This document shows positions 32,848-58,946 of a stretch of 64,000 nucleotides of DNA, piece by piece. Below the pieces are notes generated by a model. It was given only the letters and a program-made list of their open reading frames with translations, was not told the origin of the DNA and did no database searches. Numbering within the stretch: the first letter of the stretch is position 1; each line of letters opens with the position of its first letter. Source of the DNA: a virus; the IMG/VR virus record IMGVR_UViG_3300036819_000087, positions 1 to 64,000 of that record; one strand, 5' to 3'. The translations under genes and the position numbers were made by a program.

Positions 32848-33044
32848 TGATGATCAAAATGGACGTGTACGCGGCGGCGGGTGAACGGTTCGCGCCGGGC
32901 GTGTTCACCGACGTGGTCGGGAAGCCGGCCACCTGGACCGTGGGCGGTCAGGCGTGGCTGGGCCGGATCTGGTCGGCGAACATGGCCGACGACGGGACCG
33001 AGGCGACCCTCGCGATCGAGGTCGAGGATCCGCCGGCGGCGTAA
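32848..33044 (+). CDS. Small hypothetical protein
   Basis: Plausible beta-protein composition; start approximate. Confidence 0.4.
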
Positions 33045-40877: not shown

Positions 40878-41304
40878 GCCGTTGGGGAGCGTCCAAGCCG
40901 AGGAGCCGGGCCCGCCGCTCCGACACCCGGATCAGCCCGTTGACCGCCTGGATGACCGGGCCGTCGTCCTCGATCGGCGTCCCCGTGACCGGGTGCCTCG
41001 CGACCTTCCCCGACGCGCTCACCGAGTAATGCTTAGTCAGCAGAACCCGGTGCAGGACCCGGGTGAGTTCATCGAGGCGGTCCGCTTCGAGCGCGCGGAC
41101 CTCCTCGGCCGCGTCCCGGGCCACGTCGGCCATGGCCCGCTGGACCGCCTCATACGAGGTCGACACCGACTTGTGGCCAAGCTCGGTAGCGATCTGCGGG
41201 TAGGTCATGCCGCGGCGGCGGAGGTCGAGGGCGCGGGCGTCCTTCTCCCGGGTCGCGACGCTGCGGCGGCGCCCTCGGGTGCTGCCGGTATTTCTCATGC
41301 TCAT
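40771..41304 (-). CDS. Terminase small subunit (HTH)
   Basis: ALDLRRRGMTYPQIATELG HTH and ERRARLLGLDAP; overlaps terL. Confidence 0.8.
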   Translation of the reverse strand: MSMRNTGSTRGRRRSVATREKDARALDLRRRGMTYPQIATELGHKSVSTSYEAVQRAMADVARDAAEEVRALEADRLDELTRVLHRVLLTKHYSVSASGKVARHPVTGTPIEDDGPVIQAVNGLIRVSERRARLLGLDAPQRHEVRTIDAIDARLFQLADEVAGVGSGDAAPVPREA

Positions 41305-43420: not shown

Positions 43421-43666
43421 TCAGGCGGCGGCGCGGCGGTCGCGTTGCTCGGCGAGGGCGGCGGCCTTGGCCGCGTCGATCAGCCGGTACTTGGGGCGGC
43501 CGCGGCCGTCCCGGATCTCCCGGCCGCCGCCGTCGACCGCGACGGGGAGGAGTCCCCGGTCCCGCCAGTTGCAGACGGCCTGGACGCTGACGTTCCGGTC
43601 GGGTCTGGTGGCCCACGCGGCGACCTGGGAGGCGGTCAGCAGTGCCTGGAGGTCGAGGTCGGTCAC
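43421..43666 (-). CDS. MerR-like HTH DNA-binding protein
   Basis: LLTASQVA...VSVQAVCNWRDRGLL...RPKYRL. Confidence 0.7.
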   Translation of the reverse strand: MTDLDLQALLTASQVAAWATRPDRNVSVQAVCNWRDRGLLPVAVDGGGREIRDGRGRPKYRLIDAAKAAALAEQRDRRAAA

Positions 43667-43786
43667 AGGATCACCCCCGGGCATAAAAAAGCGGCCCGCG
43701 GGGCGCTGGGCTCCTGCGGGCGTAGTGATCCACTCGCGATACTACACAGTGAAGTCCCCGCCGCAAGTGTGCCGCGTTGATGCTGG

Positions 43787-44554
43787 TCATCGTGTCGGCG
43801 GTGCGGCGGCCAGGCTGTCGACGATCGCCTCGTATTCGCCGTACTTCAGGACGCGGCCGCAATTCGCGCAGGCCACGTTCTCTTCCCCCTCGACCCACAC
43901 CATGAGGCGGAGCCGGCAGAACGGGCAGCGGAGCGGTTTGGTGATTTTCCGGACGCCGGCTTTGGCTTGCCGGAACCAGGACTGATGCCAGGCGAGGACC
44001 TCCAGGCCGAACGCGGCAGCGAACGGGACCGGGCCAGCCTGCCCCGTCTCGACCGTGCCCGTGTACTGGAGGATGTCTTCGAGGTGGGTGCCGAGCCAGG
44101 CGATGACTTCGGTGGCGGCGGACGCGAGATGCCCGGACCGGGCCGGGGGCGGGGCGATCCCGAGCCGGTCGTGACAGAACAGGATCTTCCACCCGGTCAG
44201 GGTGCGGAGGAGCGCGTCGAGCTGGTCGCCGTACTCCGACGGGGACAGGGGTTCGGCGCTGCCGGAGACCCGCTCGGCGGCGTCGCTGGACGCGGTGTGG
44301 CCGTCGGCGGCGTAGCCGATCAGGGCGGCCAGCACGTCGAGTTCGGCGAGCGCTTCGCGGATACGGGACTCGTGCGGGGCGCACCACACCGGCCAGCCCC
44401 GGCGGGGTTTGGTGTCGGGGGGTTCGGGGCGGGACTGGTCCGGGTCGAGGCGGCCGTGGTCCGCGTATTCCTTGAGGGCGGCCCGGTAGGTGGCCATTTC
44501 GGCGCGGTAGTTTTTGTTGCAGGCGCCGGGGCAGATGCCGTCCTCGTAGGTCAT
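43787..44554 (-). CDS. Zn-finger putative late-gene regulator
   Basis: C-terminal CPFC...CANCG; position upstream of the packaging genes. Confidence 0.55.
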   Translation of the reverse strand: MTYEDGICPGACNKNYRAEMATYRAALKEYADHGRLDPDQSRPEPPDTKPRRGWPVWCAPHESRIREALAELDVLAALIGYAADGHTASSDAAERVSGSAEPLSPSEYGDQLDALLRTLTGWKILFCHDRLGIAPPPARSGHLASAATEVIAWLGTHLEDILQYTGTVETGQAGPVPFAAAFGLEVLAWHQSWFRQAKAGVRKITKPLRCPFCRLRLMVWVEGEENVACANCGRVLKYGEYEAIVDSLAAAPPTR

Positions 44555-44802
44555 GCGGTTAAGCGTGGCCGGCCGCAAGAGGTGCCGCCAACCTGAACGG
44601 CCCCCGGCCCGCCGTGGCGTTCACCACAAGCGGAGCACGGGGGCCGCTACCAGGGCCGCCGGGGCCCTCCCCGGTGGAAACGGGGAGGGAACACCGGACC
44701 GGCCGGTACTACCCGGCACCCGGGGTCTCCAGTCCCAAGCACCGGGCCGGCCTGCCGGGCCCTCCCCCAGGGCAGACGGGGAGGGATCATAGGCGGGCCG
44801 TC

Positions 44803-45502: not shown

Positions 45503-45868
45503 TCAGAATAGCGGGTCCATTATGGCCGCCAATTCGGCGGCGCGGGTGGCTTTCGCGGTTTCGGCGTGGTGCTCTTTGTCGTAATGCAAATGGCAGCCTT
45601 GGCACATTGCGCGGAGAATTGACGCGCCCAGGACGTTTATGTCCCAGCAGGCCGGCTGGTGGTTGAGGTGGGCGGTGGTCAAGATGACCCGGTTGCCGGT
45701 GCCGTAGGCGGCGCCCTCGTGCTCGTTCGGGCAGCGGCCGGGGTGGGTGCCCCGGCCGCACTCCCCCACGCATTCGCAGCGGCCGGCGGCCCGGACGAAC
45801 CGCACCCAGTACGTGATTGCCGTCCAGTTCGGCGGGTACAGGTGGCGGTTCTCCGGGCGGATCGGCAC
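45503..45868 (-). CDS. HNH-like endonuclease
   Basis: YPPNW...RA.GRCEC...LTTAHLNH...CQGCHLHYD. Confidence 0.7.
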   Translation of the reverse strand: MPIRPENRHLYPPNWTAITYWVRFVRAAGRCECVGECGRGTHPGRCPNEHEGAAYGTGNRVILTTAHLNHQPACWDINVLGASILRAMCQGCHLHYDKEHHAETAKATRAAELAAIMDPLF

Positions 45869-45871
45869 CGG

Positions 45872-46171
45872 TCAGCGGCCGTTCGTGCAGCGCCGCGGGC
45901 CGCTCATGATCTTCTTGCGCATGTCGTACAGGTAGCCGATGTAGCAGGTGGCGCCGAAGTCGATCACCCAGCAGACCCCCGCGCATTTCGAGCACACGCC
46001 GCGGTAGGCGGGCTGCCCTTTCCGTTTGGCCCACTTCATCTTGTGGCCGAGGCGGGTCAGGTCCTGGTGCTCGCGGACCTTCAGGCGGGTGCTGTTCCCG
46101 GTCGCGCCGACATCTTTGACAGCCTGCCGCGCCCATGTCCGCTGGACGCTTTCGTCGTCGCCGCGGGTCAT
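45872..46171 (-). CDS. Small basic GHxMxW/CxxC protein (paralog 3)
   Basis: GHKMKW...GVCSKC...RC. Confidence 0.6.
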   Translation of the reverse strand: MTRGDDESVQRTWARQAVKDVGATGNSTRLKVREHQDLTRLGHKMKWAKRKGQPAYRGVCSKCAGVCWVIDFGATCYIGYLYDMRKKIMSGPRRCTNGR

Positions 46172-46638
46172 GGTTTCTCGGACCCGTCGAGCCAGCGGGT
46201 GTAGTCGCCGTCTTCCAGGGGGTTCTTGTCGATGTCGCGGTGGAGGAGATGCACGTTGTACCCGGTCCGGTCGAGGTCGCCGGCGGTCAGGATCGCGATC
46301 GACGGGGACCGGTGCCGGCCTGCTGTGCAGCCGACCGCGATGGTGACGGGGACACTGCTGCGGCGTTTCCGCCCGTACAGTTGGGCGGTCATGGTCCGGG
46401 CCATGCCGGCGAGGTCGGTGACCAGGTCGCGGACGCCGGGCGTGTACATGACCCGGTCCAGGATCTCCTGGTCGCGGGCCGTCAGGGCGCGGAGGGCGGG
46501 GTCGACGCCGGGGTCGTGGAACCGGTGCTGGACGTTGACGGTGATCTCCGCGTCCGCGGGGGGTGGGCCGTTCCGGTACCCGAACGAGACCAGGACGACG
46601 TGGGTGCTGTCGGGGACGAACCCGGTGGTGGTGATCAC
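46168..46638 (-). CDS. RapZ C-terminal-domain-like protein
   Basis: SFGY..G.P, DP, IAVGCTAGRHRS and HRDI motifs. Confidence 0.8.
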   Translation of the reverse strand: MITTTGFVPDSTHVVLVSFGYRNGPPPADAEITVNVQHRFHDPGVDPALRALTARDQEILDRVMYTPGVRDLVTDLAGMARTMTAQLYGRKRRSSVPVTIAVGCTAGRHRSPSIAILTAGDLDRTGYNVHLLHRDIDKNPLEDGDYTRWLDGSEKP

Positions 46639-47039
46639 ACCGGCTCCTCGTCCTGCTGGCCTTCCAGCCAGCCGTTCTGGTCGGCGACCCACTCCGGGTA
46701 GGCGGGGCCGAGGAGGTCCCGGGCGACCTGGTCGGCGACGTAGTACAGGTGGAGGGGGCCGTGGTTCCCGCCGCCGGCTTCGGCCAGGTGGCCGAGGGCG
46801 CGGCCGACGCGGGCGATCAGCACGTCCGGGCCGGACTCAGCCCACCGGGTCTGCTGAACCAGGCGGACGTAGTCGAGGTACTGGGCGGTGAGGGCGAGCC
46901 GGTCGGCGACCAGCTCGGTGCGGGTCTCGGGCAGGGTGGCGCGGGCGGCCTGGTCCTGGATGTCGCGGGTGAGCCCTTCGAGGACCTCCCCGATCCGGGT
47001 CAGGTGCGGGAGCGCGGTCAGCGCGGGGGCGTCAGTCAT
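46635..47039 (-). CDS. Hypothetical protein
   Basis: ACAACCGAGGGA motif upstream. Confidence 0.6.
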   Translation of the reverse strand: MTDAPALTALPHLTRIGEVLEGLTRDIQDQAARATLPETRTELVADRLALTAQYLDYVRLVQQTRWAESGPDVLIARVGRALGHLAEAGGGNHGPLHLYYVADQVARDLLGPAYPEWVADQNGWLEGQQDEEPV

Positions 47040-47063
47040 GGTGTTTTCCCTCGGTTGTTGTGG

Positions 47064-47243
47064 TCACCGGGTGGTTCCGGTGTGAGCGTTGCGGCGTGCC
47101 TGGCGGATGGCGCGGCGGCCGTTCCGGCCCAGGGCCTTGCGGTGGGCACGCTCGGCTTTCCGGTCCAGCGGGCGGCGGCGGAAACGTGACTAGGCAAGGC
47201 CGGCGGCTAGCAGGGTGACCGCGGCGACGGCAGGCAGTGTCAT
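47064..47243 (-). pseudogene. Small membrane-anchored basic protein interrupted by an in-frame TAG
   Basis: Conserved start motif, then MTLPAVAAVTLLAAGLA*SRFRRRPLDRK...TTR*; amber codon at 47190-47192. Confidence 0.5.
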
Positions 47244-47264
47244 GCTGGTGTCGCTCCTCGGTTG

Positions 47265-47933
47265 TTACGGGCGGGTAGGGGCCGGGTGGATGGTGACGAC
47301 GGCAGGGGAACCGACCGGCTCAGGTGCTCCGACAGGCGGTACTGCGGGCGGGCTGGCTGAACTGGTCACCCAGGAACCGCCGTTCTCCGCGCCCAGGACG
47401 ACGATCGCTTGCCAGGTGATGAGCCGCAGATCAGTCCCGGTGTGGATCTGGCCGCTGGCAGGGAACCACACGTAGTCGCCGGGGAGCGGGTTCATCCAGT
47501 CGTCGGACTGGTCACCGGCTCCGGTGAGCCATGGCTGGCAGGCGACCCTGCGTGTGATGCTGCCACACTCGGCCTGGACGGTCCGGCCGCTAGTAGTGAG
47601 GATTGCCAAGGTCAACGCCCCGCAGAGCGGTTTCTTGCCGCCGCGCTGGCGGCGGGGCATGGCGGTGGGGCAGTGCGCTTGGGTCGCGGCGGCGAACCCG
47701 AACTCGACGGGATCGGAGTCCAGGACCATTCCGGCGGTCATGCCAGGGTGGGGGCGGGTTGTGGGGTGGCTGTCCATGTAGTGGGTGGCCTCGGTGCGGC
47801 TCGACGTACCGGGCGGGCTCGACGTACCGGGCGGGGTGGCTGTCCATGCTTGGCGTGCGCAGGCGGTCAAGGTGCCGCCGATGGTGAGCGCAGCGGTGGC
47901 GGTAGTCAGCGCGATGACGGTTCGGGAGGTCAT
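47265..47933 (-). CDS. Secreted/lipoprotein-like hypothetical protein
   Basis: Signal-like N-terminus ending LTAC; PPGTSS tandem repeat. Confidence 0.55.
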   Translation of the reverse strand: MTSRTVIALTTATAALTIGGTLTACARQAWTATPPGTSSPPGTSSRTEATHYMDSHPTTRPHPGMTAGMVLDSDPVEFGFAAATQAHCPTAMPRRQRGGKKPLCGALTLAILTTSGRTVQAECGSITRRVACQPWLTGAGDQSDDWMNPLPGDYVWFPASGQIHTGTDLRLITWQAIVVLGAENGGSWVTSSASPPAVPPVGAPEPVGSPAVVTIHPAPTRP

Positions 47934-47971
47934 GCTGGTGGTGCTCCTCGGTTGTTTCGGGTGGTGGGGGG

Positions 47972-49207
47972 TCAGGAATTGACGGCGCGGAGGCCGCGGG
48001 CCCGCTTCACCTCCTCGATGCGGGTCTTGCCCCAGTTGCGGGAGCGGCCGGGGTGCAAGGCGGAGAGGTCCCGGTCGGTGAGTGTCTTCCGGCCGGGCGC
48101 GAGCGACGCGATGTACTCGTCGCGGGCGGCGACCGCGTCGGGGTCCATGGACATGCGGCCACGGCCCGACAGGGCCACATCCGGGTGGACCTGGTCCGGG
48201 CCAGTGGTCCGTTCTGGCTCATCTGGCCCATCATTGGGCCGGGTGTCTGGCCCATCGGCCGGCCCACCCGTGGCCCACGTTTCTGGCCCATCGGCCGGCC
48301 CCGTCTCTGGCCCATTGGGGGCCTCGTCGGGGCCGTGGGCCGGGGCCATGGTCAGGGCCATGAACGGGGCCACCGGGAGGCTGGCGGACAGGGCCACGCC
48401 GGGGGCCACCCCGGCCGGGAGCGGCGCGGCGGCGGTCAGCAGTTCATCGACCCGGCCGAGGGCACCGGTGATGCGGACACCGGTGTCGAGCTGCCACAGC
48501 AGATCCCCCGGGACGTGGTCACGCCAGCCGGTGCCGAACCGGGCGCGGAGCCGCTCGACGGCGGCGCGGCGGTCGATTTCCAGGCTGACCGCGGTCGTGT
48601 AGGAGGTGACTCCCCACATGATCATGCGGCGTTTGATGTACCAGGTGCCGGGCCGGTCGACCAGCCACCTCTGCCAGGGGATACGTTCGGCGCGGCGCCG
48701 TGACCGGTCAAGGGCGCGGGCGGCGCGGCGGGCCTCGTTCTGGCGGCGGAGCATCGCATGCCGGGCCGCCTCAACGAAGATCACCAGCAGGGCGGGCGCG
48801 AACATGCGGATGCCCATCCCCCGGTAGTCGGGCCAGCCGGCGGCGGCGTTCACGGCGACCACCCCGGCGGCGAACGTGAGGACCGCCCACCGGAGCCACC
48901 ACACCGTCCGTTCGGTGTAGACCAGGACCAGGTCCAGGCCCATCACCACGTACAGGCCACCCTGGATGCCGAGGGGGGCCAGCCACGCCAGCGCCACGTT
49001 CAGGTGGGCCGCGAGATGGGCCACCGTCTGGTAGTCGGCGGCGGTGGCGTAGGCCGCGATCGCCAGGCCACCGATGGCCAGCAGGACCCGCTGCCATGGG
49101 CCAAGAGCGGGCCGGCCTTCATGTTCTCCCATAGGGGCCATAGTGGCGTCTGGCCCAACAGGGGGCGGGGAAACACGCGGGGCGGTCATCAGGTTGGGTC
49201 CTTTCAC
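47972..49207 (-). CDS. DUF2637/Spd-like membrane protein of actinomycete conjugative elements
   Basis: Four TM segments, RIPWQRW...RRMIMWG...Y motif, Pro/Gly repeats, C-terminal HTH-like end. Confidence 0.7.
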   Translation of the reverse strand: MKGPNLMTAPRVSPPPVGPDATMAPMGEHEGRPALGPWQRVLLAIGGLAIAAYATAADYQTVAHLAAHLNVALAWLAPLGIQGGLYVVMGLDLVLVYTERTVWWLRWAVLTFAAGVVAVNAAAGWPDYRGMGIRMFAPALLVIFVEAARHAMLRRQNEARRAARALDRSRRRAERIPWQRWLVDRPGTWYIKRRMIMWGVTSYTTAVSLEIDRRAAVERLRARFGTGWRDHVPGDLLWQLDTGVRITGALGRVDELLTAAAPLPAGVAPGVALSASLPVAPFMALTMAPAHGPDEAPNGPETGPADGPETWATGGPADGPDTRPNDGPDEPERTTGPDQVHPDVALSGRGRMSMDPDAVAARDEYIASLAPGRKTLTDRDLSALHPGRSRNWGKTRIEEVKRARGLRAVNS

Positions 49208-49887
49208 TGGACCGGTGCGGGTTCATCGGCGAGGGCGAGGGAATCCTCGAACCACCAGCCGAACGTGGGCACGGCACCGCCGGCGGCCTGGAGCTCGTAC
49301 ACCTCGATGTAGCAGGCGGTGATGTCGTCGGGGAGCCGCAGCGCGCAGGAGTGGGCGTAGGCGACCCGGCGGATCGCGCCTTCAAGCAGGTTGATCGCCC
49401 GTTCGCATTCGGCGGCGACCCGGCGGGCTTTCTCCGCGGCCAGGGCGGCGTCTTGCATCCGCTTCTCCGCGTCGTCGTAGGCGGGTGATTCGGGGTAGGC
49501 GGCGGCCAGGTCGCGGCGGGCCCGTCTCCACGCATCGATCTGGCGGCGGAGTTCAGCGGCGGCTTCCGCCATGTCTTTGCGGGTTGCTGTTATCAGCTCT
49601 GCGCAGTGTTTCCCCTGCTGGTCGAGGAGGGTGGCGAGGTCGGCGGCGAAGTTGTCCAGTTCGGCGCGGGTCCAGTTGGGTTCTACGTCCCGGTCGTGGA
49701 GGAGGGCGGCGGCGTCGCCGGCGGTCAGGGCTAGGGCGGCGCCGGCGAGGGCGCCAAGGCCGAGGACGGCGACGTTGTTGCGGAGGGCGCGGGCGTACAT
49801 GGTGGCGGTGGTGTTACCGGCGTCGCGGATGCCTTCGATGAACCGGAAAGCTGCCGCCTCGTGCGGGCCGATCGGGTCGAACATCAC
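49204..49887 (-). CDS. Coiled-coil hypothetical protein
   Basis: Ala-rich heptads; GGAGGGG RBS. Confidence 0.65.
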   Translation of the reverse strand: MMFDPIGPHEAAAFRFIEGIRDAGNTTATMYARALRNNVAVLGLGALAGAALALTAGDAAALLHDRDVEPNWTRAELDNFAADLATLLDQQGKHCAELITATRKDMAEAAAELRRQIDAWRRARRDLAAAYPESPAYDDAEKRMQDAALAAEKARRVAAECERAINLLEGAIRRVAYAHSCALRLPDDITACYIEVYELQAAGGAVPTFGWWFEDSLALADEPAPVQ

Positions 49888-49908
49888 CCCTCCCCTCCCC
49901 TACTGTCT

Positions 49909-50029
49909 GTGATCACGATTGACCGGTCACTTGATTGACCGGTCACTTCTGGACCCCCGTATATACAGGGCAGGTGTCCGGTCACGCGGCGTGCGGGCGG
50001 GCGCGGGCGCGGTCACGCGGTTTCGTCAC
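49909..50029. repeat. Repeat cluster downstream of traB; candidate clt (cis-acting locus of transfer)
   Basis: GATTGACCGGTCACTT x2 (49917-49948) plus CCGGTCACGCGG (49978) and GCGGTCACGCGG (50009). Confidence 0.55.
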
Positions 50030-52365
50030 TGGCTGTGATCCCCGGGCTTGGGGAGGCCGGGCGGGACCGGGGCCTTCCAGACCCATTTCTGGGCCGCGCC
50101 GCCGGCCCCGTTGGTCCCGACCAGGTCCGCCAGCCTCAGTTTGTGCATGTAGGCGAGGGTGACCGCTTTGTTGATCTTGAGGATGGCGGCGAGTTCCCGA
50201 GCCGATTTACCCCCGCTGACCAGGGCGTTCACGATGACCACGAAACGATCTTGGGGGATTTCGTGCAGGTCGGCGACCTGCTGCCACTGGACGGCGCGCG
50301 CCTGCCGCATCTGTTCCTCGGTGACCTCGGGCCGGATCGTGGCCGGGTCGGGGGTGCTGTCGAGGACGCGGCGGACCTCGTCGGCTTTGGTGCCGAGGCC
50401 CTGGACCATCTCGTCCAGGCCGGGGACTTCTTCTCGCATCATGCGCTCCAGTTCGTCGAACGAGGTGCCGGCGGCGGGCCGGTCGAGGGTGGCCACGGCC
50501 GCACCGTCCCATTCGGGGGAGGGGCTGGCGTCAGCATTTGCTGACGGGGTGGGGGTGGGCTGGGTGGTGGGGGTGAACCGGTCCCACTGGCCGCGTGCCC
50601 AGCGGGCGAACACGTCCTCGCCGAGGAGCTGGTCGAGTTCGTCGCCGAGGAAGTCCCGCAGTTCCGGTTCGAGCTGCGGCTGGTGGCGGGCGCGGGCGTT
50701 GACCAGTTCGTCGATGTCCTCGGTGTCGCGGAGCTTCCAGGTGCGGCCCATCGTGGTGGCGGCGCCCATCTCGGGGACGAACCCCCACACGCCCTTGGCG
50801 GTGCCGCCGTAGGTGGTCATGTCGGGCATCCACGAGTTCTGGCCGAGGAGCAGCGCGGACTCGTTCGGGTTGGTGATGCGGCTCACGGCGAACGTGTCGA
50901 CCAGGGGCCGGATGTTGGCCCCGGAGGGGCCGCCCATCCAGTCGGCGGTGGCCCGCTGCCCGGCGGTGACCCAGGCGATGCCCTCGGACCGGTCCTTGCT
51001 GTACGCCTGGCCGAGGAGTTTCGCGACGGCGGGGAACTTCGCGGCCGCGTCGATCTCGTCGATGATCACCAGGATGAGGGGGGCTTTGCGGGTGGGCCGG
51101 TGGTCACGGTTCCCGCGTCGGGTGTCGCGGTGCTGGGACCGCCACCAGCGGATCTTCTGGAGCAGGCGGAGGATGCGGACCGCGCGGGTCCACTGGTCCG
51201 GGCCGATCGCGGTCAGGTGGCACGCTGGCGCCCAGTCGAGCAGCTCGGACGCCTTGTCCAGGTTGATGCCGATGGTGAGGACATCCCGGCAGGCGGTGCC
51301 CCGCTCGTAGATGCAGTTCATGAGGGTTGATTTGCCCGCGCCGCGGGTGCCGAGGAGGTAGGCGACCCGGGCACCGTCCTCGGTCCAGACCGGGAGGGTG
51401 AGGACCCGGCCGGTTTCGGGAGCCTGGCCGACGGGGAACGGGTCGTGGCAGGTGGCCTCGTTCAGGCCGGGCAGCTCGATCTCATGGTCGGCGACCAGCG
51501 CCGGGTGCTTGATCGGCCGTTTCCACGGGTTGCGGTACTGAATGGTGACCTGGACGCGGCCGGCGCGGGAGTTCGCCGGGACCGTAACCTGGACCTGGGC
51601 GGGGCGGAGCCCTTCCGCGCCGGCGATCGTTTCGGCGTAGTGGCCGGCGCGGGACCGGAAGTACGACGCTTTCTTGCCGGTGCCGTTCACGTCGAACAGC
51701 CACGCCTCCCCGACCCGGGTGTCCCAGTGGTTCAGCAGGAGCGCCCCGTGCATGTCCCAGCTTGCGGCGCGGTGCTGCCACGCGGTTTTCTCCGCCTGCC
51801 ACTGGCGGGCGTACACGGCGGAGGGGAGGTGGTGGACCCACCACCAGGCGACCGCGGTGGTCAGCGCCCACAGCATCGTCAGGGACGGGACACCGAACGG
51901 GCCGCCGAGCACGCCACCCGGCTGGCCTGCGGTCCAGGCGACCCATGCGCCGGTGATCAGGCCGCCGACGGCCAGGCGGCGGGCCCCGGCCATGTGGTTG
52001 CGGCGTTCCCCGGTCCGCTTGTCCTTGCGGCCCGCCGAGCCGGCCAGGAGCGTCACCGACTCGAACACCAGGGTGGCGACCACAATGTCATGGCCGGGGA
52101 GCCCGGTCACGTGCATGATCTCAGCGGCGGTCCACGCGACCGCGGCGGCCTTCCACACGCGGCGGGCCTCGCGGCCGGTGCTGGTGGGGGGGCGGCGGGT
52201 CAGCGTGTTGTCGTCGCTGCCACCCAGGTCCTCCTCGTCACCCCACTCATCCCCATCATCTGCCTCATCCCGGTCATTCGGCTGGTCTATCCGGTAGGGG
52301 GCGGTGGCATAGGGGTCACGGTCGTCGCTCCACTCGGCGGTGGCGTCCGGGTCGGGGTGGGTCAC
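50026..52365 (-). CDS. TraB-like FtsK/SpoIIIE conjugative DNA translocase
   Basis: N-terminal TM segments, Walker A GTRGAGKST, Walker B VIIDE, GQR motif, C-terminal winged-helix (GGKSARELAAIL...L...LV). Confidence 0.8.
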   Translation of the reverse strand: MTHPDPDATAEWSDDRDPYATAPYRIDQPNDRDEADDGDEWGDEEDLGGSDDNTLTRRPPTSTGREARRVWKAAAVAWTAAEIMHVTGLPGHDIVVATLVFESVTLLAGSAGRKDKRTGERRNHMAGARRLAVGGLITGAWVAWTAGQPGGVLGGPFGVPSLTMLWALTTAVAWWWVHHLPSAVYARQWQAEKTAWQHRAASWDMHGALLLNHWDTRVGEAWLFDVNGTGKKASYFRSRAGHYAETIAGAEGLRPAQVQVTVPANSRAGRVQVTIQYRNPWKRPIKHPALVADHEIELPGLNEATCHDPFPVGQAPETGRVLTLPVWTEDGARVAYLLGTRGAGKSTLMNCIYERGTACRDVLTIGINLDKASELLDWAPACHLTAIGPDQWTRAVRILRLLQKIRWWRSQHRDTRRGNRDHRPTRKAPLILVIIDEIDAAAKFPAVAKLLGQAYSKDRSEGIAWVTAGQRATADWMGGPSGANIRPLVDTFAVSRITNPNESALLLGQNSWMPDMTTYGGTAKGVWGFVPEMGAATTMGRTWKLRDTEDIDELVNARARHQPQLEPELRDFLGDELDQLLGEDVFARWARGQWDRFTPTTQPTPTPSANADASPSPEWDGAAVATLDRPAAGTSFDELERMMREEVPGLDEMVQGLGTKADEVRRVLDSTPDPATIRPEVTEEQMRQARAVQWQQVADLHEIPQDRFVVIVNALVSGGKSARELAAILKINKAVTLAYMHKLRLADLVGTNGAGGAAQKWVWKAPVPPGLPKPGDHSQ

Positions 52366-52415
52366 GGTCGTGATCCTCTCGGGGCAGGCGGGCGGGCAGG
52401 AGAAGGGAAGGGGGG

Positions 52416-53213
52416 TTAGGCGGCGGCGCCGTCGCCGAACCACTGGCGGGCGTTGTTCGGCAGCGGGGTGCCGTCCGCGACCGCGTTGCGGGTCGCGGCG
52501 TACTCGGCGACCATCCGCTGGTTATGCGCGGCGACCAGCAGGGAGGCGTCCATCGCGCTGTCGGCGATCTCGATCAGGCCGGCGATGATGGCCGGGGACA
52601 GGTTCCACACGGCGGTCAGGTTGTCGGTGTGGGCCAGGATCGCCTGGGAGAAGTGGAGGAGCCCCGCCGACCAGCCCCGGACCGTGGACAGTTCGCCGGC
52701 CTCGTTCTCCGGGACGAACCCGGCGATCGCGGTGGAGAGCTGGACCCACAGGGCGGGCACGTCCTGCTGGCCGATCACCGCCGGGTCCGGGGGGGCGGCG
52801 CGCAGGTCGTCGCGGAGGGACGGCACGTCCCGGACCGTGTCTGGGGTCGCGTCCGGGCCTGGGCCACCCGCAGCCGGGACGGGACGGACACGCTGGACCG
52901 GTGCGGTGACCGCCCCGTCCTGGTGGCCACGCCAGGCCGACTCACGGGCCTTCCTGATTCCCAGAGACACACCCCACCGGGCCCGCATGAGCAGCCAGCC
53001 GGACAGCCAGCACAGTTTGTCCCATGCCAGGGTGAGCATCAATCTGGGTGCTCTCCTGACGGCCAGTATCAGCACCTTCCAGTGGGACAGGTGCCCGATT
53101 CTGGAATCAGAACGGGATGCGTCCTCTTCCAGCACTTTGTACAGGTAGGCAACCGACCAGGAAAATCCGATCAGGAAAATCGGGAGGAACAGGACGAAAA
53201 AGAGGCTGAGCAT
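52416..53213 (-). CDS. Membrane-anchored hypothetical protein (conjugation module)
   Basis: N-terminal TM segment, helical C-terminus, adjacent to traB. Confidence 0.6.
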   Translation of the reverse strand: MLSLFFVLFLPIFLIGFSWSVAYLYKVLEEDASRSDSRIGHLSHWKVLILAVRRAPRLMLTLAWDKLCWLSGWLLMRARWGVSLGIRKARESAWRGHQDGAVTAPVQRVRPVPAAGGPGPDATPDTVRDVPSLRDDLRAAPPDPAVIGQQDVPALWVQLSTAIAGFVPENEAGELSTVRGWSAGLLHFSQAILAHTDNLTAVWNLSPAIIAGLIEIADSAMDASLLVAAHNQRMVAEYAATRNAVADGTPLPNNARQWFGDGAAA

Positions 53214-53228
53214 TTCCGGGTGTCCTTT

Positions 53229-53873
53229 CTAATACCAGCCGTGGATGTTTTCGTGGTCGAGCGCTTTGCAGGGGGTGCCGTACACGTCGTGGATGTCGGC
53301 GAGGCCCCACCGGATTTGGGTCGCGGGGTCGGCCCGGCCCCCGAGGTCGGCGGGCCGGCCAGCGACCGGGTACTTGTAGGCGGGGCGGGCCTGCGCGATC
53401 CCGAACGCGAACACGTAGGAGCCGGGCCCGTCCCCGCCGGCGTGGGTGACGCGGGTGTCGGCGGTGTCCGACCAGCCCGACTCGCGGGTCCACAGCTCGT
53501 TGAGGCAGCCGGCCTGGGTGCCGGTCCAGCCGTCCAGGCAGCCGGCGAGCCTGTCACCGAGGGCCTGGTTGCTGGCCGGGGTGCCGCCGCCGCCGGGGGC
53601 CGAGCACGACGGGGCAGGATGATGGACGGCGTGGATGACAGGCCGGACCACTGGCCGGACCACGGCCTTGGCCGCACCCGGATCCGCGCCAGCACCAGCG
53701 GCGGCGAACGCAGCGACAGCCAGGCCAGCGACCACCAGCGGGTGGGGGCCTCGTCGCTGGCCGAGACGGAGCGGCTTCTGGAACAGGGACGGGCGCGGCC
53801 CATGGAACCGGCGGGACCGGCGGGCCTGCCGCCGCGTCGGCGGCCGGTGGAAGTCGTACCCGTCCAGAGGCAT
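53229..53873 (-). CDS. Secreted lytic transglycosylase-like protein
   Basis: CLNELWTRESGW...AFGIAQA...TQIRWGL..I...YGTPC...HGWY. Confidence 0.8.
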   Translation of the reverse strand: MPLDGYDFHRPPTRRQARRSRRFHGPRPSLFQKPLRLGQRRGPHPLVVAGLAVAAFAAAGAGADPGAAKAVVRPVVRPVIHAVHHPAPSCSAPGGGGTPASNQALGDRLAGCLDGWTGTQAGCLNELWTRESGWSDTADTRVTHAGGDGPGSYVFAFGIAQARPAYKYPVAGRPADLGGRADPATQIRWGLADIHDVYGTPCKALDHENIHGWY

Positions 53874-53883
53874 GAGCTGGCCC

Positions 53884-54108
53884 CTACCGGCTCTCGCCGG
53901 AGCAGCGTTGGCGGCCGAACCAGCCCAGTTTGTAGGTCTCCGAACGGCCACCGGGATGCACGGTCACCGAGCCGAGGCAGCGGCCGCACTGGCCGTTGTA
54001 TGTCTGGATGTTGCGTCTAATCCTCCAGGTCATCTTGTGGCCTTTGCCGCGGAGACGGCGCGTCCATTCCTTTTTGGCCTCGTTGCGCTGTTCGATCTCG
54101 GTAGCCAT
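53884..54108 (-). CDS. Small basic GHxMxW/CxxC protein (paralog 2)
   Basis: GHKMTW...GQCGRC...RC. Confidence 0.6.
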   Translation of the reverse strand: MATEIEQRNEAKKEWTRRLRGKGHKMTWRIRRNIQTYNGQCGRCLGSVTVHPGGRSETYKLGWFGRQRCSGESR

Positions 54109-54110
54109 GG

Positions 54111-54344
54111 TCAGCGGCCTCCCCGGATTCGGCGGCATCCAGGCCACTTCAGGTCGGTGGTGTCGACGCTGCCGCCGAGGTAGACGGTGATCTCGCCGGG
54201 GCAGTTCTTGCAGCGGCCGTGCCAGCGCCTGCTGCGGCCCCCGCTGTACTTCCACTGCATGACGTGGCCGTGTTTGCGGAGCTTGTCAGCCCAGTCGCGT
54301 TTAGCGGCGGTGCGCGCCTGCGCCGGGGTGATCTGGTTGCGCAT
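54111..54344 (-). CDS. Small basic GHxMxW/CxxC protein (paralog 1)
   Basis: GHVMQW...GRCKNC...GC. Confidence 0.6.
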   Translation of the reverse strand: MRNQITPAQARTAAKRDWADKLRKHGHVMQWKYSGGRSRRWHGRCKNCPGEITVYLGGSVDTTDLKWPGCRRIRGGR

Positions 54345-54346
54345 GG

Positions 54347-54934
54347 TCAGTACCTCAGTCCGGGGATGCGGCCGTAGCCGACGATGGTGGTTTCGGTGGG
54401 GGACCAGGCGCGGACCTGGACGTACGCGCCGGTGTGGGGTGCCTCGACCACCCGGCCGCCACCGACATAGGTGACGACGTGGCCGGGGGACGGGTCGGGG
54501 TCGCCGGGCCATTGCTCGAAGATCAGGTCACCCGGTTCGAGCTGGCTGTAGGAGATGCGGGTGGTCCAGGCGTACTGGGCTTCGCTGGTCCGCGCCCCGG
54601 TGTCGATACCGATCTGGTGGAGCGCCCAGAAGTTCAGCCCGGAACAGTCGAACTCGCTGGGTCCGATCGCCCCGTACACGTACGGGTCGCCGGTCTTGGA
54701 TTCCTCCAGGTGGAGGAACTCGGTAGCGGTCGGCCCGCTGCCCCCGCCGGCGGCGGCCGCGGCGTGCGCGGGAGCCGCCGTGGCGGCGGGGTGCTTGGCC
54801 TGGTGGACAGCGGCGTGCGCGCCGGTCGAGGCCAGCGCGCACACCACCACCCCGGCCATCACCCCGGCCGCCCAGCCGGGGACACCGCTGGCGCGGCGCC
54901 CGTACCGGCGGCGGAGAGCATCGGGAGAGGTCAT
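54347..54934 (-). CDS. NlpC/P60 cell-wall peptidase
   Basis: PYVYG..GP..FDCSGL, PGDLIF and GHV motifs; N-terminal signal/TM segment. Confidence 0.92.
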   Translation of the reverse strand: MTSPDALRRRYGRRASGVPGWAAGVMAGVVVCALASTGAHAAVHQAKHPAATAAPAHAAAAAGGGSGPTATEFLHLEESKTGDPYVYGAIGPSEFDCSGLNFWALHQIGIDTGARTSEAQYAWTTRISYSQLEPGDLIFEQWPGDPDPSPGHVVTYVGGGRVVEAPHTGAYVQVRAWSPTETTIVGYGRIPGLRY

Positions 54935-54937
54935 CGG

Positions 54938-55252
54938 TTACCGGCTCACAGACCAGCCGCCAGCGGTCCGCTGGCTGCCCTTGTCCTTGCCCCGGCCGAA
55001 CGGGGCCACGAGGATCCCCGTGGCCGCCGCGACCGCGAAGAAGATCACGAATAGGACGACCCACGCGCCGATCATGTTGCTGGTCACGGAGGTGTGGGTG
55101 ACGGCGGCGTGGTGGGCGATCGCCGTCTTGTGCTTGTCGTTGATGTAGCCGACAGCGACCGACGCGGCGGCCACCGACGCGACGATCGCGCCGAACAGCC
55201 AGCGGCCGAACGTCAGCGGCTTGCTCTCGCGATTGCGGTTGTTGCTGCTCAA
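54938..55252 (-). CDS. Two-TM membrane protein
   Basis: Two hydrophobic helices; AAAGGAG RBS. Confidence 0.65.
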   Translation of the reverse strand: MSSNNRNRESKPLTFGRWLFGAIVASVAAASVAVGYINDKHKTAIAHHAAVTHTSVTSNMIGAWVVLFVIFFAVAAATGILVAPFGRGKDKGSQRTAGGWSVSR

Positions 55253-55305
55253 CGGGGTGTCTCCTTTGGTGTGGCGTTGGCCCGGCCGGTTGGCCGGGCC
55301 ACGAT

Positions 55306-55671
55306 CTAGACCGCTTCGGCTTCTATGCCTTCGCGCTTGAGACGGCGGCGTTCCCGTTCGGACATGCCGCCCCAGATCCCGAACCGCTCATCGTTGGCGA
55401 GGGCGAATTCGAGGCAGTCGGCGCGGACCTCACAGGACCGGCACACCTTCTTGGCCTCCCTCGTCGACCCGCCCTTCTCGGGGTAGAAGGCTTCGGGGTC
55501 GGTTTGGGCGCACAGGGCCCGGTCCTGCCAGCCGAGTTCGTTGCCCTCGTCGGTCACTTCGCCGACGAAGCTCTCGTCGAGGGGCTCAACCGTGACCAGG
55601 GGGCCGGCGATGGGGCCGGCCGCGCCGGGGCTGGCCGCGAGGGTGGAGACGCGGACACGGGCGGCGCTCAT
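55306..55671 (-). CDS. whiB: WhiB-family transcription factor
   Basis: WQDRALCAQTDPEAFYP...AKKVCRSCEVRADCL...FGIWGGMSERERR. Confidence 0.95.
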   Translation of the reverse strand: MSAARVRVSTLAASPGAAGPIAGPLVTVEPLDESFVGEVTDEGNELGWQDRALCAQTDPEAFYPEKGGSTREAKKVCRSCEVRADCLEFALANDERFGIWGGMSERERRRLKREGIEAEAV

Positions 55672-56198
55672 GACTTGGCCGCCTTCCGCAGGTCGGCGAA
55701 GTTCGTGCACCGGACCTCGACCAGGGCGGTGAACTCGGACACGCTTCGCGCGTGGAGCGGACGGACCGGGCCGGTGTGCTCGACCACCAGGTCGGCCTTG
55801 TAGCCGTAGAACTGGCGGGCGCGGTACACAGCGTCCTGCTCGATATCGTCGAGGTCGCGGCCCTCGGCCTGGTCGGCGATGAACAGGTCCGGGCCGGGGC
55901 GGGGGGCGGGTTCCCGGTTGGCGCGCATGACGGCCAGCAGGTCGGGACGAGGCTGATCCGGGGCGGGCGGGGCGGGACAGCCGAACAGGTCAAGGAACGA
56001 GGGCATGAGGGTTCTCCAGGGAAGGAACAGGACGGCCGCGCCGAGGAACACGACCAGGGCGGCGGCGGCGGCCAGCCAGCACAGACCGGACTGGCAGGTC
56101 CAGCCGCCGGTAACAGCCAGGACGGCGACCACGGCGGCCGCGTCTCCGCACACGGCGGCACGCCGTCGTGTGCGGGCGCGGGGGGTGATCTCAGTCAC
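55668..56198 (-). CDS. Hypothetical membrane protein
   Basis: Two TM segments then a soluble domain; GAGGAGG RBS. Confidence 0.5.
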   Translation of the reverse strand: MTEITPRARTRRRAAVCGDAAAVVAVLAVTGGWTCQSGLCWLAAAAALVVFLGAAVLFLPWRTLMPSFLDLFGCPAPPAPDQPRPDLLAVMRANREPAPRPGPDLFIADQAEGRDLDDIEQDAVYRARQFYGYKADLVVEHTGPVRPLHARSVSEFTALVEVRCTNFADLRKAAKS

Positions 56199-56556
56199 GG
56201 GGGGCCTCCTCACGCCGGCCGCCGAAGTCGGCGGTGGCCGGGTCGGCCTCGTCGAGGAACTCGGCCAGTTCGGTCAGGAGCCGGACGGTGCCCTGCTCAG
56301 CAAGCTGGTCGCGGAACACGTCGAGGGCATCGGTGTAGTTGCCGCAGTGGACCGTCACGCGGGCGGTGACCGGGCCGGGCGCGCGGGGTGACAGCGACGC
56401 GGACAGGGGGCCGATGTAGGCGACCCGGAGGCGGGCGGCTGGCCCGTACACGCGCTGCGCATGGTCGAGGGCGTAGACGATCAGGCCGGGGATTCCGGAG
56501 CCGAAAGCGTCGAGGCTGAACCAGTCGGGGCTGTCGGGGCGGGGTGTCGTGGTCAC
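56191..56556 (-). CDS. Hypothetical protein
   Basis: Coupled ORF, GGAGG RBS. Confidence 0.55.
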   Translation of the reverse strand: MTTTPRPDSPDWFSLDAFGSGIPGLIVYALDHAQRVYGPAARLRVAYIGPLSASLSPRAPGPVTARVTVHCGNYTDALDVFRDQLAEQGTVRLLTELAEFLDEADPATADFGGRREEAPRD

Positions 56557-56882
56557 GATGCCTCCTGCGCGAGAGCGCGGGCGGTGCGGGCGTCGGCCAG
56601 CAGGACGGCGGCGAGGCCGTGGTCTGGCTTGGGGCCAGAGATGGCGTCCTCGGCCTGTGCGGTGAACCGCGCGGCGAGCGCCTCGTACACCTCGGGGCCG
56701 GCATCGACGAGGATGCCGCCGGTGAACATGCCGGCGGCGGTGGCACCGGGGCCGATACGGAGGGGGCGCTCGTAGCGGCCGGCGAGGATCACGGCGCGGA
56801 GGCTGGCCCTGATCTCATCGGGGGTCCCGGCGGTGGCCGTCTCCTCGTCCACCCAGACGATGACCGGGGCGGGGGCGGTCAT
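56553..56882 (-). CDS. Hypothetical protein
   Basis: MTAPAPVIV..., GAGGAG RBS. Confidence 0.55.
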   Translation of the reverse strand: MTAPAPVIVWVDEETATAGTPDEIRASLRAVILAGRYERPLRIGPGATAAGMFTGGILVDAGPEVYEALAARFTAQAEDAISGPKPDHGLAAVLLADARTARALAQEAS

Positions 56883-57106
56883 CCCGCGCTCCTCAGCGAC
56901 TGGGGGGGCCGACCGCAGCGTGCGCAGAAGATCCGGCGACGGTGGCGGATCAGGCTGTCCTCCGGGTGGCAGGGCGATGGTGCAAGTTCCCGGGAACTGG
57001 CGGAGGGGTTGCCGCCAGTCATGCCCCAGGCGGCTTGTGCACGGGCGAGGGCGGCTGCCCCCGCGCGCCGATTGGGCTTGACGAACCTGGTTGCTACAGT
57101 GGCCAT
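56879..57106 (-). CDS. Small hypothetical protein
   Basis: AGGAAGG RBS; CH...CxxC. Confidence 0.5.
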   Translation of the reverse strand: MATVATRFVKPNRRAGAAALARAQAAWGMTGGNPSASSRELAPSPCHPEDSLIRHRRRIFCARCGRPPQSLRSAG

Positions 57107-57199
57107 GTCGTTTCCTTCCTGGGCGGATGGGGCGATGTGGTGAGCAGGGCGACGGCCGCGGAGTGAGGGCTCCGTGGCCGTTCGCGTTGTAGGAGCAGT

Positions 57200-57442
57200 T
57201 CATGCGGGCACCGCCGACAGGCCGGGGCGTGCGGGGCGGAGCCGGGTGCGGGCGATGTAGGCGTCATAGGACGCCACCGTCACGCGGAGGGTGCGGCCGA
57301 ACTGATTCGCGACCAGTTCACCGGAGTGGATCAGGCCACGGACCCAGTCCTCGTCCCGGTCCCACGCGGCCGCGATCGCCTGAACCGAATAGAACGGGTC
57401 AGGTGCGGGGGCCGCTTGCGTCTCGGCGGGGGATTCACTCAC
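57200..57442 (-). CDS. Excisionase/Cro-like HTH_17 DNA-binding protein
   Basis: FYSVQAIAAAWDRDEDWVRGLIHSGEL.A.QFGRTLRV. Confidence 0.8.
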   Translation of the reverse strand: MSESPAETQAAPAPDPFYSVQAIAAAWDRDEDWVRGLIHSGELVANQFGRTLRVTVASYDAYIARTRLRPARPGLSAVPA

Positions 57443-57534
57443 CCGTGGGACCACCTCTCTGGACCTGGCAGGCCCGGAAGGCACCTCGGTTCACCGCAAG
57501 TGCCCTCACGGACCCGCATAAGCCGGTTTGGTAA

Positions 57535-57567
57535 TGACAGTACAGACCGAACGGACCGAACTGTCAA
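57535..57567. promoter_or_regulatory. Divergent control region with operator
   Basis: TGACAGT...ACTGTCA inverted repeat enclosing GACCGAAC x2; minus-strand TTGACA-N19-TACTGT. Confidence 0.55.
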
Positions 57568-57633
57568 TGGGTTCGGGAAAGTCCGGGTTACGCTTTCCGG
57601 TGGCAACCGAGGCGACCAGGGAGGACCCGGGCA

Positions 57634-58383
57634 GTGACCGAGTGGGAGAAAATCGCCAGCGACCTGCGGCGGAAGATCGAGGCGGGGGAGTTCACCGACG
57701 GGCGTCTGCCGACGGAACGGGACCTCGCCGAGGAGTACGAGGTGGCGCGGCCCACCGTTCAGCGGGCGCTGGTCAGCCTCACCAACGACGGGCTCCTCGA
57801 ACCGGGGCAGGGCCGGCGGGGCCGGCGGATCCGCCGGAACCGGCCGCTGGTATTCCATGTGCTGCGGTCAGAGTCACCGGCGGCGATCGCCGAGCACGCG
57901 GCGGCCGGGGTTGACTCGTGGACGGCCGCCGCGACCGAACAGGACCGGGCCGGCGGGCAGCAGATCTCGGTGGCGATCGAGGAGGCCAGCGCCAGCATCG
58001 CCGCCCACCTCGGCATCGGCCAGGGCGGCGAGGTCACTGTCCGGCGCCGGGTCCGCACCCTCGATGGTGAACCGCACAACCTCGCCACCACCTACTACCC
58101 GCGGTCGCTGACCGGCGGGTCGGCGATCGAGGGGCCGGGGGATATCCCGCAGGGCACCATCGCGCTCCTGGGGGAGATGGGCTGGCCCCAGACCAGATCC
58201 CGCGACGAGATCGGCACCCGGATGCCGGCCCCGGCCGAACGGGAACAGCTTGAGGTGCCGCCCGGTGTCCCGGTGCTGGTCCACGTCCGTGTCGGGTACA
58301 GCGGGGACACCCCGGTCAAGGTGACAGTGACGATCTGGCCGGGGGACCGGGCCCGCCTGGTGTATGAGGACGGGGACGTGTGA
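57634..58383 (+). CDS. GntR/HutC-family regulator with UTRA domain (KorSA-like)
   Basis: LPTERDLAEEYEVARPTVQRAL wHTH plus UTRA-type C-terminus; divergent from the transfer operon. Confidence 0.92.
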   Translation: MTEWEKIASDLRRKIEAGEFTDGRLPTERDLAEEYEVARPTVQRALVSLTNDGLLEPGQGRRGRRIRRNRPLVFHVLRSESPAAIAEHAAAGVDSWTAAATEQDRAGGQQISVAIEEASASIAAHLGIGQGGEVTVRRRVRTLDGEPHNLATTYYPRSLTGGSAIEGPGDIPQGTIALLGEMGWPQTRSRDEIGTRMPAPAEREQLEVPPGVPVLVHVRVGYSGDTPVKVTVTIWPGDRARLVYEDGDV

Positions 58384-58946
58384 TGCCGTTCATCCACAAA
58401 GCCGAACCGGGTCACCTGGCCGAGGTCCACGACGTGCTCCACTCAGCGGCTGAGGACCTTCACCGGCGGGGCATCGATCAGTGGCCGGACGGGTCACCGA
58501 ACTTCGAGCCGGCCGCGCTGGCCACCCAGATCCGGCGGGGCGAGTTCTGGATGGTCCGGGACCGGGCACTGCTGCCGGTCGCGGTGATCGCCGTGTCCTA
58601 CCGCGGCGACCCCGATTTCTGGACCCCCGCCGAGCTGGCCGCCCACGCCGTGTACCTGTCGAAAGCGGCGATCCTGCCGCGTCTGCGCGGGTTGGGGCTC
58701 GGCGCGTCCCTGTTCCGGTGGGCGGTCGACCTGGGATGGCGGGAAGGCACCGACGTGGTCCGCCTCGACGCCTGGTCAGCGAACAAGCAGCTCCACGGCT
58801 ACTACCAGGCGCGGGGGTGGCGGTTCATCCGCAACGACCCTCCGGAAGGACGCCGGTCCGGGGCCCTGTTCGATCGGCCCGCGGTCCCGGACCCGGACGC
58901 GCGGCGCATGTTCCGGCGGGTGCCGCCGCCGGCGATGGCCCTCTAG
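58380..58946 (+). CDS. GNAT acetyltransferase
   Basis: RG.GLG motif A, VRLDAW..N..LHGYYQARGW. Confidence 0.88.
   Translation: MMPFIHKAEPGHLAEVHDVLHSAAEDLHRRGIDQWPDGSPNFEPAALATQIRRGEFWMVRDRALLPVAVIAVSYRGDPDFWTPAELAAHAVYLSKAAILPRLRGLGLGASLFRWAVDLGWREGTDVVRLDAWSANKQLHGYYQARGWRFIRNDPPEGRRSGALFDRPAVPDPDARRMFRRVPPPAMAL

Follow-up and report, generated by a model that had tools for sequence, protein, structure and literature searches.

The window analysed here, a 64,000-nucleotide stretch of DNA, comprises bases 1-64000 of the IMG/VR virus record IMGVR_UViG_3300036819_000087 (107,282 bp; hereafter G000). The element in question is a minus-strand gene module within it, extending from 57484 to 46168, that encodes a Tra-like double-stranded DNA (dsDNA) translocase. 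The gene of a GntR/UTRA repressor is divergent from this module, and the module genes run co-directionally toward those of an HNH endonuclease, a DNA methylase, a TerS-like protein and TerL. Genes were called by third-position G+C (GC3 frame). An earlier note on the window had listed GntR/UTRA, Xis-like helix-turn-helix (HTH), NlpC/P60, DUF2637, RapZ-C and HNH genes in this region, and domain assignments confirmed them at their places, the Xis-like one weakly.

The translocase gene lies at 50026-52443 (minus strand), where the open reading frame (ORF) has 805 residues; the database start at about 52365 gives 779. The protein is composed of an acidic N-terminus, three to four hydrophobic helices, a P-loop core and a C-terminal domain with the order helix-helix-helix-strand-strand. 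Its Walker A (GTRGAGKST), Walker B (VIIDEID) and GQR motifs are all invariant across the family alignment. In the AlphaFold model (mean predicted local distance difference test score, pLDDT, 64; 70-90 in the core), the C-terminal domain forms a winged helix of three helices and two strands (residues 705-763, pLDDT 72-85), which is conserved in the family alignment. The best Foldseek matches of the model are the FtsK motor (E=4e-12), followed by the pCW3 coupling protein TcpA and then by EssC/EccC, while phmmer against the PDB gave chance-level matches only.

At the profile level, hhalign aligned the translocase family with the ATPase pZL12.71c at 96.3% over 229 columns and with pIJ101 Tra at 94.4% over 273 columns, beginning in the pre-motor domain. 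The weakest of the three comparisons was that with the E. coli FtsK motor (85.7%, 108 columns). The family profile also matched pZL12.71c in hmmsearch (E=7e-6), and chromosomal ORFs of 530-640 residues from other actinomycetes have BLASTP matches to both the translocase and pIJ101 Tra. By architecture and profile, the translocase is a remote member of the actinomycete Tra-type translocases. It falls outside the chromosomal FtsK/SpoIIIE class, given the lack of a PF01580 match, its context in a phage early operon and the weakest hhalign score. The possibility raised in the earlier note, that the ATPase might cluster with non-conjugative FtsK, was thus checked: the stretch alignable with plasmid Tra is longer than that alignable with E. 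coli FtsK.

Four observations count against reading this protein as a Tra-type transfer pump. First, it matches no Pfam family, and with the cut-off relaxed to E<=10, PF01580 (FtsK_SpoIIIE) still matched nothing in the genome; pIJ101 Tra matches that family at 9e-10, and pZL12.71c fails as the G000 translocase does. Second, BLAST and tblastn found no relative in the phage or plasmid collections. Third, in a tree with E. coli FtsK, pIJ101 Tra and pZL12.71c, the last is placed next to the translocase family on long branches and with weak support (80/87), and the deep nodes are unsplit, leaving Tra not separated from FtsK. Fourth, the homology to Tra appears at the profile and fold level only and is remote. 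The description "TraB-like FtsK ATPase with winged helix" therefore holds for the fold, the winged helix and the profile link to Tra, but not for PF01580, and the label "Streptomyces-type TraB" was overstated for a relative as distant as this.

The family itself is large. Seven IMG/VR loci (L004 to L010) encode translocase relatives with 31-37% identity, and a nine-member family profile finds 1320 cluster representatives at E<=1e-3; where names are given at all, which is seldom, they read "AAA ATPase" or "hypothetical", as in Actinomadura violacea. Streptosporangiaceae, Actinomadura and Streptomyces-like genomes are among those with relatives. The translocase thus defines a large unannotated branch of FtsK-fold translocases, for which no Pfam model matches the module protein. 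Of 401 genomes sampled evenly across the class, 11 had a translocase-family match at E<=1e-10, three of them close; one of the three, G021, is unpublished and enters only this tally and one tree leaf. The family is not confined to phages, because a chromosomal copy in G262, adjoining a tRNA-Arg gene and a weak integrase match, has no phage genes within 60 kb by tblastn.

The GntR/UTRA repressor (HutC-type; 57634-58383, plus strand; Pfam UTRA E=1.8e-23, GntR E=4.5e-13) is 38% identical to pIJ101 KorA over the HTH and 28% identical to pZL12.80 over 205 residues (both BLASTP), and all three share the GntR+UTRA architecture. The divergent promoter region (57485-57633) contains an inverted repeat, TGACAGT..ACTGTCA, that was read from the sequence and is a candidate operator. 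The repeat surrounds the sequence GACCGAAC GGACCGAAC, located at 57545-57562.

The first gene of the operon (57200-57484; this and all following module genes are on the minus strand) encodes a small HTH_17/excisionase-like protein, with matches that are weak and under the cut-off (Pfam HTH_17 E=0.0027; PHROG excisionase E=0.003). It is followed by three ORFs of unassigned function (56553-57203, 56191-56556 and 55668-56213), called by GC3 and matching neither Pfam nor PHROG; a 121-residue ORF in this stretch (55668-57203) has a weak relative in contig G003. Next comes a WhiB-family regulator (55306-55710; Pfam Whib E=1.5e-26), which is kept in six of the seven related viral loci (34-68% in L004 and L006-L010, tblastn) and is unmatched in L005, where only about 170 bp upstream of the Tra-like gene is present. 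The product of the following gene (54938-55252) is a small hydrophobic membrane protein, whose matches to Pfam membrane families are weak and sub-threshold.

Two putative wall enzymes and a membrane protein precede the translocase. The NlpC/P60 peptidoglycan endopeptidase (54347-54934; Pfam NLPC_P60 E=4.6e-16) is secreted or membrane-anchored and is kept in the related loci L007-L010. The ORF at 53229-53951, with an N-terminal anchor, is a probable SLT-like lytic transglycosylase, as the earlier note had proposed: the ESGW..GIAQ motif and the nearest ESM Atlas clusters, which are SLT-domain proteins (score 0.94), support the assignment, but neither Pfam nor the PDB returned a match. Directly upstream of the translocase, a 265-residue membrane protein without a family match (52416-53213) is kept at this position in L004 and L006-L008 (25-38%, tblastn).

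Behind the translocase gene and a field of direct repeats, the first gene encodes a 227-residue protein (49204-49887) with no family match and with relatives at 30% in L004 and L005 (tblastn). The next product is a DUF2637 membrane protein (47972-49207; Pfam DUF2637 E=1.3e-8; phrog_29003 E=5e-22), relatives of which occur on 223 plasmid records, 212 of them from Streptomyces; on one plasmid, the DUF2637 gene adjoins those of a T4 coupling protein and a MobF relaxase. This distribution is compatible with a role in DNA transfer. As a candidate SpdB, the DUF2637 protein was ruled out, as pIJ101 SpdB has no Pfam match and no BLAST similarity to DUF2637. The module continues with ORFs of unassigned function (47265-47933 and 46635-47039), followed by a RapZ C-terminal-domain protein (46168-46692; Pfam PapZ_C E=2.2e-24; phrog_18111 E=7e-28).

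Linkage of the module to the phage genome

G000 is a temperate tailed phage, whose host would be a mycelial actinomycete of high G+C (Streptomyces or Streptosporangiales type). It encodes TerL (39309-40877, minus strand), a portal of 1169 residues with a long C-terminal extension (29423-32932, minus strand), a MuF protein with an ADP-ribosyltransferase domain (25315-27108, minus strand), large tail-fibre-like proteins and, outside the window, a GH25 lysozyme (endolysin; 93216-93890) and a tyrosine integrase (86930-87970, minus strand). CheckV rates the record as 96% complete. Since the final 125 bp of the contig repeat bases 11-135, the assembly is probably circular or terminally redundant, despite the IMG/VR label "linear".

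The module shows no seam against this background. The G+C content is about 70% throughout the record, without a step at the module. No integrase, tRNA or att-like direct repeat was found on the stretch that joins the module to the packaging genes, nor do such repeats flank the module, and the record has no tRNA genes. The integrase, which adjoins an endonuclease VII gene about 30 kb from the module, is the single one in the whole 107,282-bp record. It belongs to the lysogeny region of the phage and not to a separate integrative element.

The start-associated motif CAACCGAGGAG also runs through the module. The window holds eight exact copies, and ten with one mismatch, versus 1.5 expected, and the genome holds 12 exact copies on both strands, all 5-11 nt ahead of a start codon. 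As the earlier note had observed, copies lie within the module (two) and on both sides of it: (A)CAACCGAGGAG occurs at window positions 37042, 37628, 41386, 45501, 47264, 47954, 59783 and 61761 and at genome positions 77147, 78393, 85879 and 86275. The motif is an extended ribosome-binding, start-associated sequence (SAS) that marks a subset of genes across the phage genome. In this it is reminiscent of the start-associated sequences known from cluster K mycobacteriophages.

The earlier note had also seen no integrase or att boundary between the module and the phage genes. This proved right, with the qualification that a 385-bp non-coding gap does separate them. Two near-identical GC-rich hairpins (direct-repeat family D2) lie 96 nt apart in this gap, at 44653-44789, and are possible terminators between the early and packaging genes. 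Given the gap and its two hairpins, the module side and the packaging genes are co-directional but probably separate transcription units. A promoter scan gave no result, and a terminator scan was uninformative at the G+C content of the phage.

The linkage is conserved in relatives. The order GntR, WhiB, NlpC/P60, 265-residue partner and translocase recurs, whole or in part, in the seven IMG/VR loci, and in two of the seven a TerS-like gene lies 8-9 kb downstream of the translocase. Two of the loci are in contigs that are closed, 124,995 and 124,491 bp long, and whose ends overlap by 127 bp in the manner typical of assemblers. Outside the module they have hardly anything in common with G000, and their head genes differ; the G000 TerL and portal, used as queries, did not find the terminases of G003 and G005. 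One of the two closed contigs, G003, was inspected with Pfam on its own ORFs and encodes a Mu-type portal, a capsid protein and, distant from the module, a single integrase. The count of integrases is likewise one in each of the complete records. The recurrence of the linkage in independent closed contigs, for which the earlier note had proposed to look, was thereby found.

A separate plasmid or actinomycete integrative and conjugative element (AICE) recently inserted into a prophage, or a chimeric contig, would account for a transfer-like module in a phage record. AICEs of the pSAM2/SLP1/pMEA300 type span 9-24 kb, use att sites in a tRNA gene and carry int, xis and rep adjacent to each other (PMC2440964, PMC3218068). 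The gene content of the module, with its GntR (KorSA-like) regulator, excisionase-like HTH protein and Tra-type FtsK-like translocase, and with an integrase somewhere on the element, does recall AICEs (PMC2440964), and the G262 relative beside tRNA-Arg and a weak integrase match, free of phage genes in tblastn over 60 kb, points the same way, although this copy could be classed neither as prophage nor as AICE. Unlike AICEs, however, G000 has 107 kb, a full set of virion genes, an integrase about 30 kb off, no identified Rep and no tRNA, so that with no att-like repeats around the module it does not class with the pSAM2-like elements. An integrase outside the window had been named in the earlier note as a sign of an inserted AICE; one does exist, but it stands far from the module beside endonuclease VII/XRE genes, as in pZL12.

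An insertion or chimera is argued against by the closed contigs of about 125 kb that carry the module with different head genes. In all, at least three contigs of independent assembly, closed or nearly so and differing in their structural genes, show the linkage, as does the cultured pZL12; no second integrase, Rep, tRNA or att-like repeat was found around the module, and composition and start-associated motif are uniform. We therefore regard recent insertion or misassembly as very improbable. Given the even G+C, the shared start motif, the lack of flanking att sites or tRNA, the distant single integrase and the conserved linkage, the module is a native, conserved part of the phage early region. 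The earlier note had likewise taken it as integral to the phage genome and yet plasmid- or AICE-like in content and layout, and the KorA-type repressor divergent from a Tra-type operon agrees with this description.

Direct repeats behind the translocase gene

Directly past the translocase stop, at 49888-50025 (minus strand), lies a repeat field with four direct copies of GTGACCG, two of which are inside an exact 16-bp tandem that holds the palindrome TGACCGGTCA. Four copies of GTGACCG occur in no other 150-bp window of the genome, the maximum elsewhere being two. At the equivalent position, a different 8-mer, particular to each locus, is found four to seven times in six of the seven related loci, while L010 has a GC-rich 8-mer only. 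A GC-rich core is common to several of these fields. Loci with similar recognition helices share repeat cores (CTCAAG in L007/L009 and CGTGC in L004/L005), and those pairs are also the closest relatives overall; loci with differing recognition helices have unrelated repeats, in what is a small sample.

TraB of pSVH1/pSG5 (Reuther et al. 2006; Vogelmann et al. 2011; both described in PMC2440964 and PMC3583192) is reportedly an FtsK-like DNA pump that works as a hexamer. Its C-terminal winged helix is reported to recognise direct repeats of 8 bp, the TraB recognition sequences (TRS), clustered in the clt locus at or past the 3' end of traB. The four GTGACCG copies past the translocase stop, and the individual 8-mers of the relatives, resemble this arrangement, a likeness by description and not by TraB sequence. 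Some repeats of the G000 family are palindromic, whereas TRS are not. Judged by position and copy number, the repeat field could be a candidate clt bound by the winged helix of the translocase.

Alternatively, the field may control the downstream operon, as an operator or promoter to which the GntR repressor or another one binds, or be an iteron origin; the variation of the repeats between loci would then track the regulator or Rep and not the winged helix. It sits 20-130 bp ahead of the next start codon, where the promoter and operator of the next operon are expected, and the perfect palindrome TGACCGGTCA, present twice, is typical of dimeric repressors. HutC-type operators resemble this palindrome. 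The GC-rich core and an TCACAGTGA-like element, seen in several loci, resemble parts of promoters or leaders. The replication of pZL12, for its part, is said to use repA plus iterons.

Two further findings, like the promoter-proximal position and the palindrome, tell against a clt: when counted loosely, 4% of random 150-bp windows have as many copies, and in pZL12 no such field lies directly past 71c. In favour of a clt, GTGACCG is absent from the GntR-proximal divergent promoter, save for an overlap with the GntR start codon, and the two locus pairs with similar recognition helices share repeat cores, a weak argument for pairs that are closest relatives. We consider an operator or iteron role rather unlikely but a serious alternative to the putative clt of the mechanism proposed below.

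Two side observations concern such fields. In pZL12, five GGACCGA direct repeats lie further downstream of 71c, at the 3' end of 70c (L033, about 7790-7840); their likeness to GACCGAAC GGACCGAAC in the GntR divergent promoter of G000 may be a coincidence. In contig G003 (L007), the first gene past the repeat field resembles actinobacterial integration host factor (mIHF/sIHF), as judged by eye from the N-terminal sequence.

Precedents and a possible route of DNA transfer

The closest precedent is pZL12/phage ZL12 (GQ919031), a Streptomyces plasmid-phage in which a transfer locus has been demonstrated (Zhong et al. 2010, J Bacteriol 192:3747, as cited in PMC3583192 and PMC4487206) that is classed as a singleton extrachromosomal temperate actinophage (PMC7157519). 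In this circular tailed-phage genome of about 90 kb and, as in G000, high G+C, the gene of the GntR/UTRA regulator pZL12.80 points away from a minus-strand operon, which leads into the genes of the TerS-like 68c and TerL 67c. That operon contains a NUDIX gene, membrane proteins and the 725-residue FtsK/SpoIIIE-like 71c, which has no Pfam match. The two genomes have in common TerL (C-terminus, 38%), the TerS-like protein (30%), the GntR regulator (28%), endonuclease VII (39%) and the adjacent integrase (32%), the last two being neighbours in pZL12 as well (35c and 36c).

The differences are also considerable. Identities are low, and BLAST does not join the two ATPases. The NUDIX gene lies inside the pZL12 transfer operon, and none was found among the G000 module ORFs, whereas WhiB, NlpC/P60, the SLT-like enzyme, DUF2637 and the RapZ-C protein are extra in G000. 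The distance from translocase to TerL is about 9 kb in G000 versus about 2.6 kb in pZL12, and pZL12 has ParA and ParB, but G000 has ParB only. Of the two, pZL12 is the one with demonstrated transfer. G000 has the pZL12-type layout, with a complete tailed-phage gene set and a Tra-type locus in one replicon and the order GntR, FtsK/SpoIIIE-like gene, terminase. The novelty implied for a "phage-conjugative hybrid" was consequently not borne out: this is a known kind, published in 2010 with that same order in pZL12, and G000 is a larger and only distantly related example whose accessory genes differ.

The plasmid pIJ101 (NC_001387) offers a second comparison. There, KorA (GntR+UTRA) is divergent from tra (kilA), which is followed by spdA, spdB and kilB, and Tra has an FtsK-type motor and a C-terminal winged helix, like the G000 translocase, with small membrane proteins encoded downstream. 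In contrast, tra is the first gene past its promoter, while about ten genes precede the G000 translocase, and G000 has no homologues of SpdA, SpdB or KilB.

Taken together, these likenesses make it probable, with considerable room for doubt, that the module functions in cell-to-cell transfer of dsDNA. In the mechanism we envisage, the GntR/UTRA repressor would silence the divergent operon, as KorA and TraR do on plasmids. After derepression, the NlpC/P60 and SLT-like enzymes would locally open the peptidoglycan, and the small membrane proteins and DUF2637 would form the membrane part of the apparatus. The membrane-anchored FtsK-fold ATPase would assemble into a ring, its winged helix docking on the 8-bp repeat field (clt) just downstream of its own gene, and would pump the phage dsDNA genome through septal cross-walls or into an adjacent hypha. 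Spread as naked DNA could then occur besides spread in virions, as reported for pZL12. We infer that the winged helix binds DNA, that the partner proteins have these roles and that transfer takes place at all.

Besides the remoteness of the Tra relationship, some missing parts weigh against transfer. No Spd homologue was identified in the module. ParB (8576-9364, minus strand; domains ParB_N and HTH_ParB) stands without a ParA, as PF13614 has no match anywhere in the record and none was seen by inspection upstream of ParB. No Rep was identified among the ORFs scanned in the record. With neither Rep nor ParA found, the replicative form that would be transferred is uncertain.

Instead of transfer between cells, the FtsK-fold pump could serve phage maintenance or the lytic cycle. 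Like chromosomal FtsK/SffA, it might move the phage genome, episomal or replicating, clear of sporulation and vegetative septa or segregate it across them, or act in replication or superinfection exclusion, with the wall hydrolases as accessories of lysis or entry. The fold of the translocase is that of FtsK itself, the failure in the Pfam family that contains Tra and the unsplit tree fit this view, the most conserved neighbour is WhiB, of a regulator family linked to septation, and a ParB without ParA suggests unconventional segregation. However, the layout, with a divergent KorA-type GntR/UTRA gene, membrane partners and repeats past the translocase gene, is that of a plasmid transfer locus, and the alignment to pIJ101 Tra and pZL12.71c is longer and stronger than that to FtsK. 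Moreover, the phage already owns a GH25 endolysin elsewhere, and the pZL12 relative adjoins a locus required for conjugal transfer. A maintenance or lytic role thus seems unlikely to us, though it deserves serious attention, and transfer is the reading we prefer.

We suggest, tentatively, that an uncultured lineage of temperate actinophages of 105-125 kb keeps a Tra-type pump and co-evolving docking repeats as a virion-independent hyphal route. If so, "conjugative phages" would be a regular lifestyle in mycelial actinomycetes and pZL12 no one-off; such phages could enter cells without the receptor and might mobilise any host DNA in which the repeat is present. If the module works as in pZL12, phages of filamentous actinomycetes would be transmitted in two ways, and the distinction of phage, plasmid and AICE would become blurred across a lineage, not in one isolate. 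The gain from the G000 locus alone is modest, as the principle was published in 2010, and the putative docking repeats are open to direct testing.

Other genes of the phage

The repressor gene is followed on the plus strand by that of a GNAT acetyltransferase (58380-58946; Pfam Acetyltransf_1 E=4e-6), the start of which overlaps the GntR stop. The earlier note had reported paralogs with a GHxMxW motif inside the module and just past its left end, and a motif scan found three, all on the minus strand. The first two, with the motif GHxMxW / C-x2-C, lie at about 54111-54344 (motif near 54269) and about 53884-54110 (motif near 54042), both with approximate starts; the third, at 45872-46171 (motif near 46048), is just left of the interval 46168-58946.

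On the packaging side, all on the minus strand, are genes for a TerS-like HTH protein (40771-41304), an N6/N4 DNA methylase (41707-43383), a MerR-like protein (43421-43684) and a DNA-binding protein (43787-44578). RecT, two N6/N4 DNA methylases and XRE/DUF5753 regulators are encoded elsewhere in the record. The endonuclease VII gene overlaps the start of the integrase gene (the pair spans genome positions 86292-87970, minus strand), and the C-terminal 190 residues of the portal have a relative at 44-48% in contig G005.

The HNH endonuclease (45503-45868, minus strand; phrog_1571 E=2e-37) has a 49% identical relative on the Streptomyces linear plasmid NZ_CP108193 (L036, 24084-24368). A 708-residue protein encoded at the equivalent place on this plasmid was considered and is not a member of the module ATPase family. 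The plasmid also has GntR, WhiB and DUF2637 genes, in the same order as in the phage.

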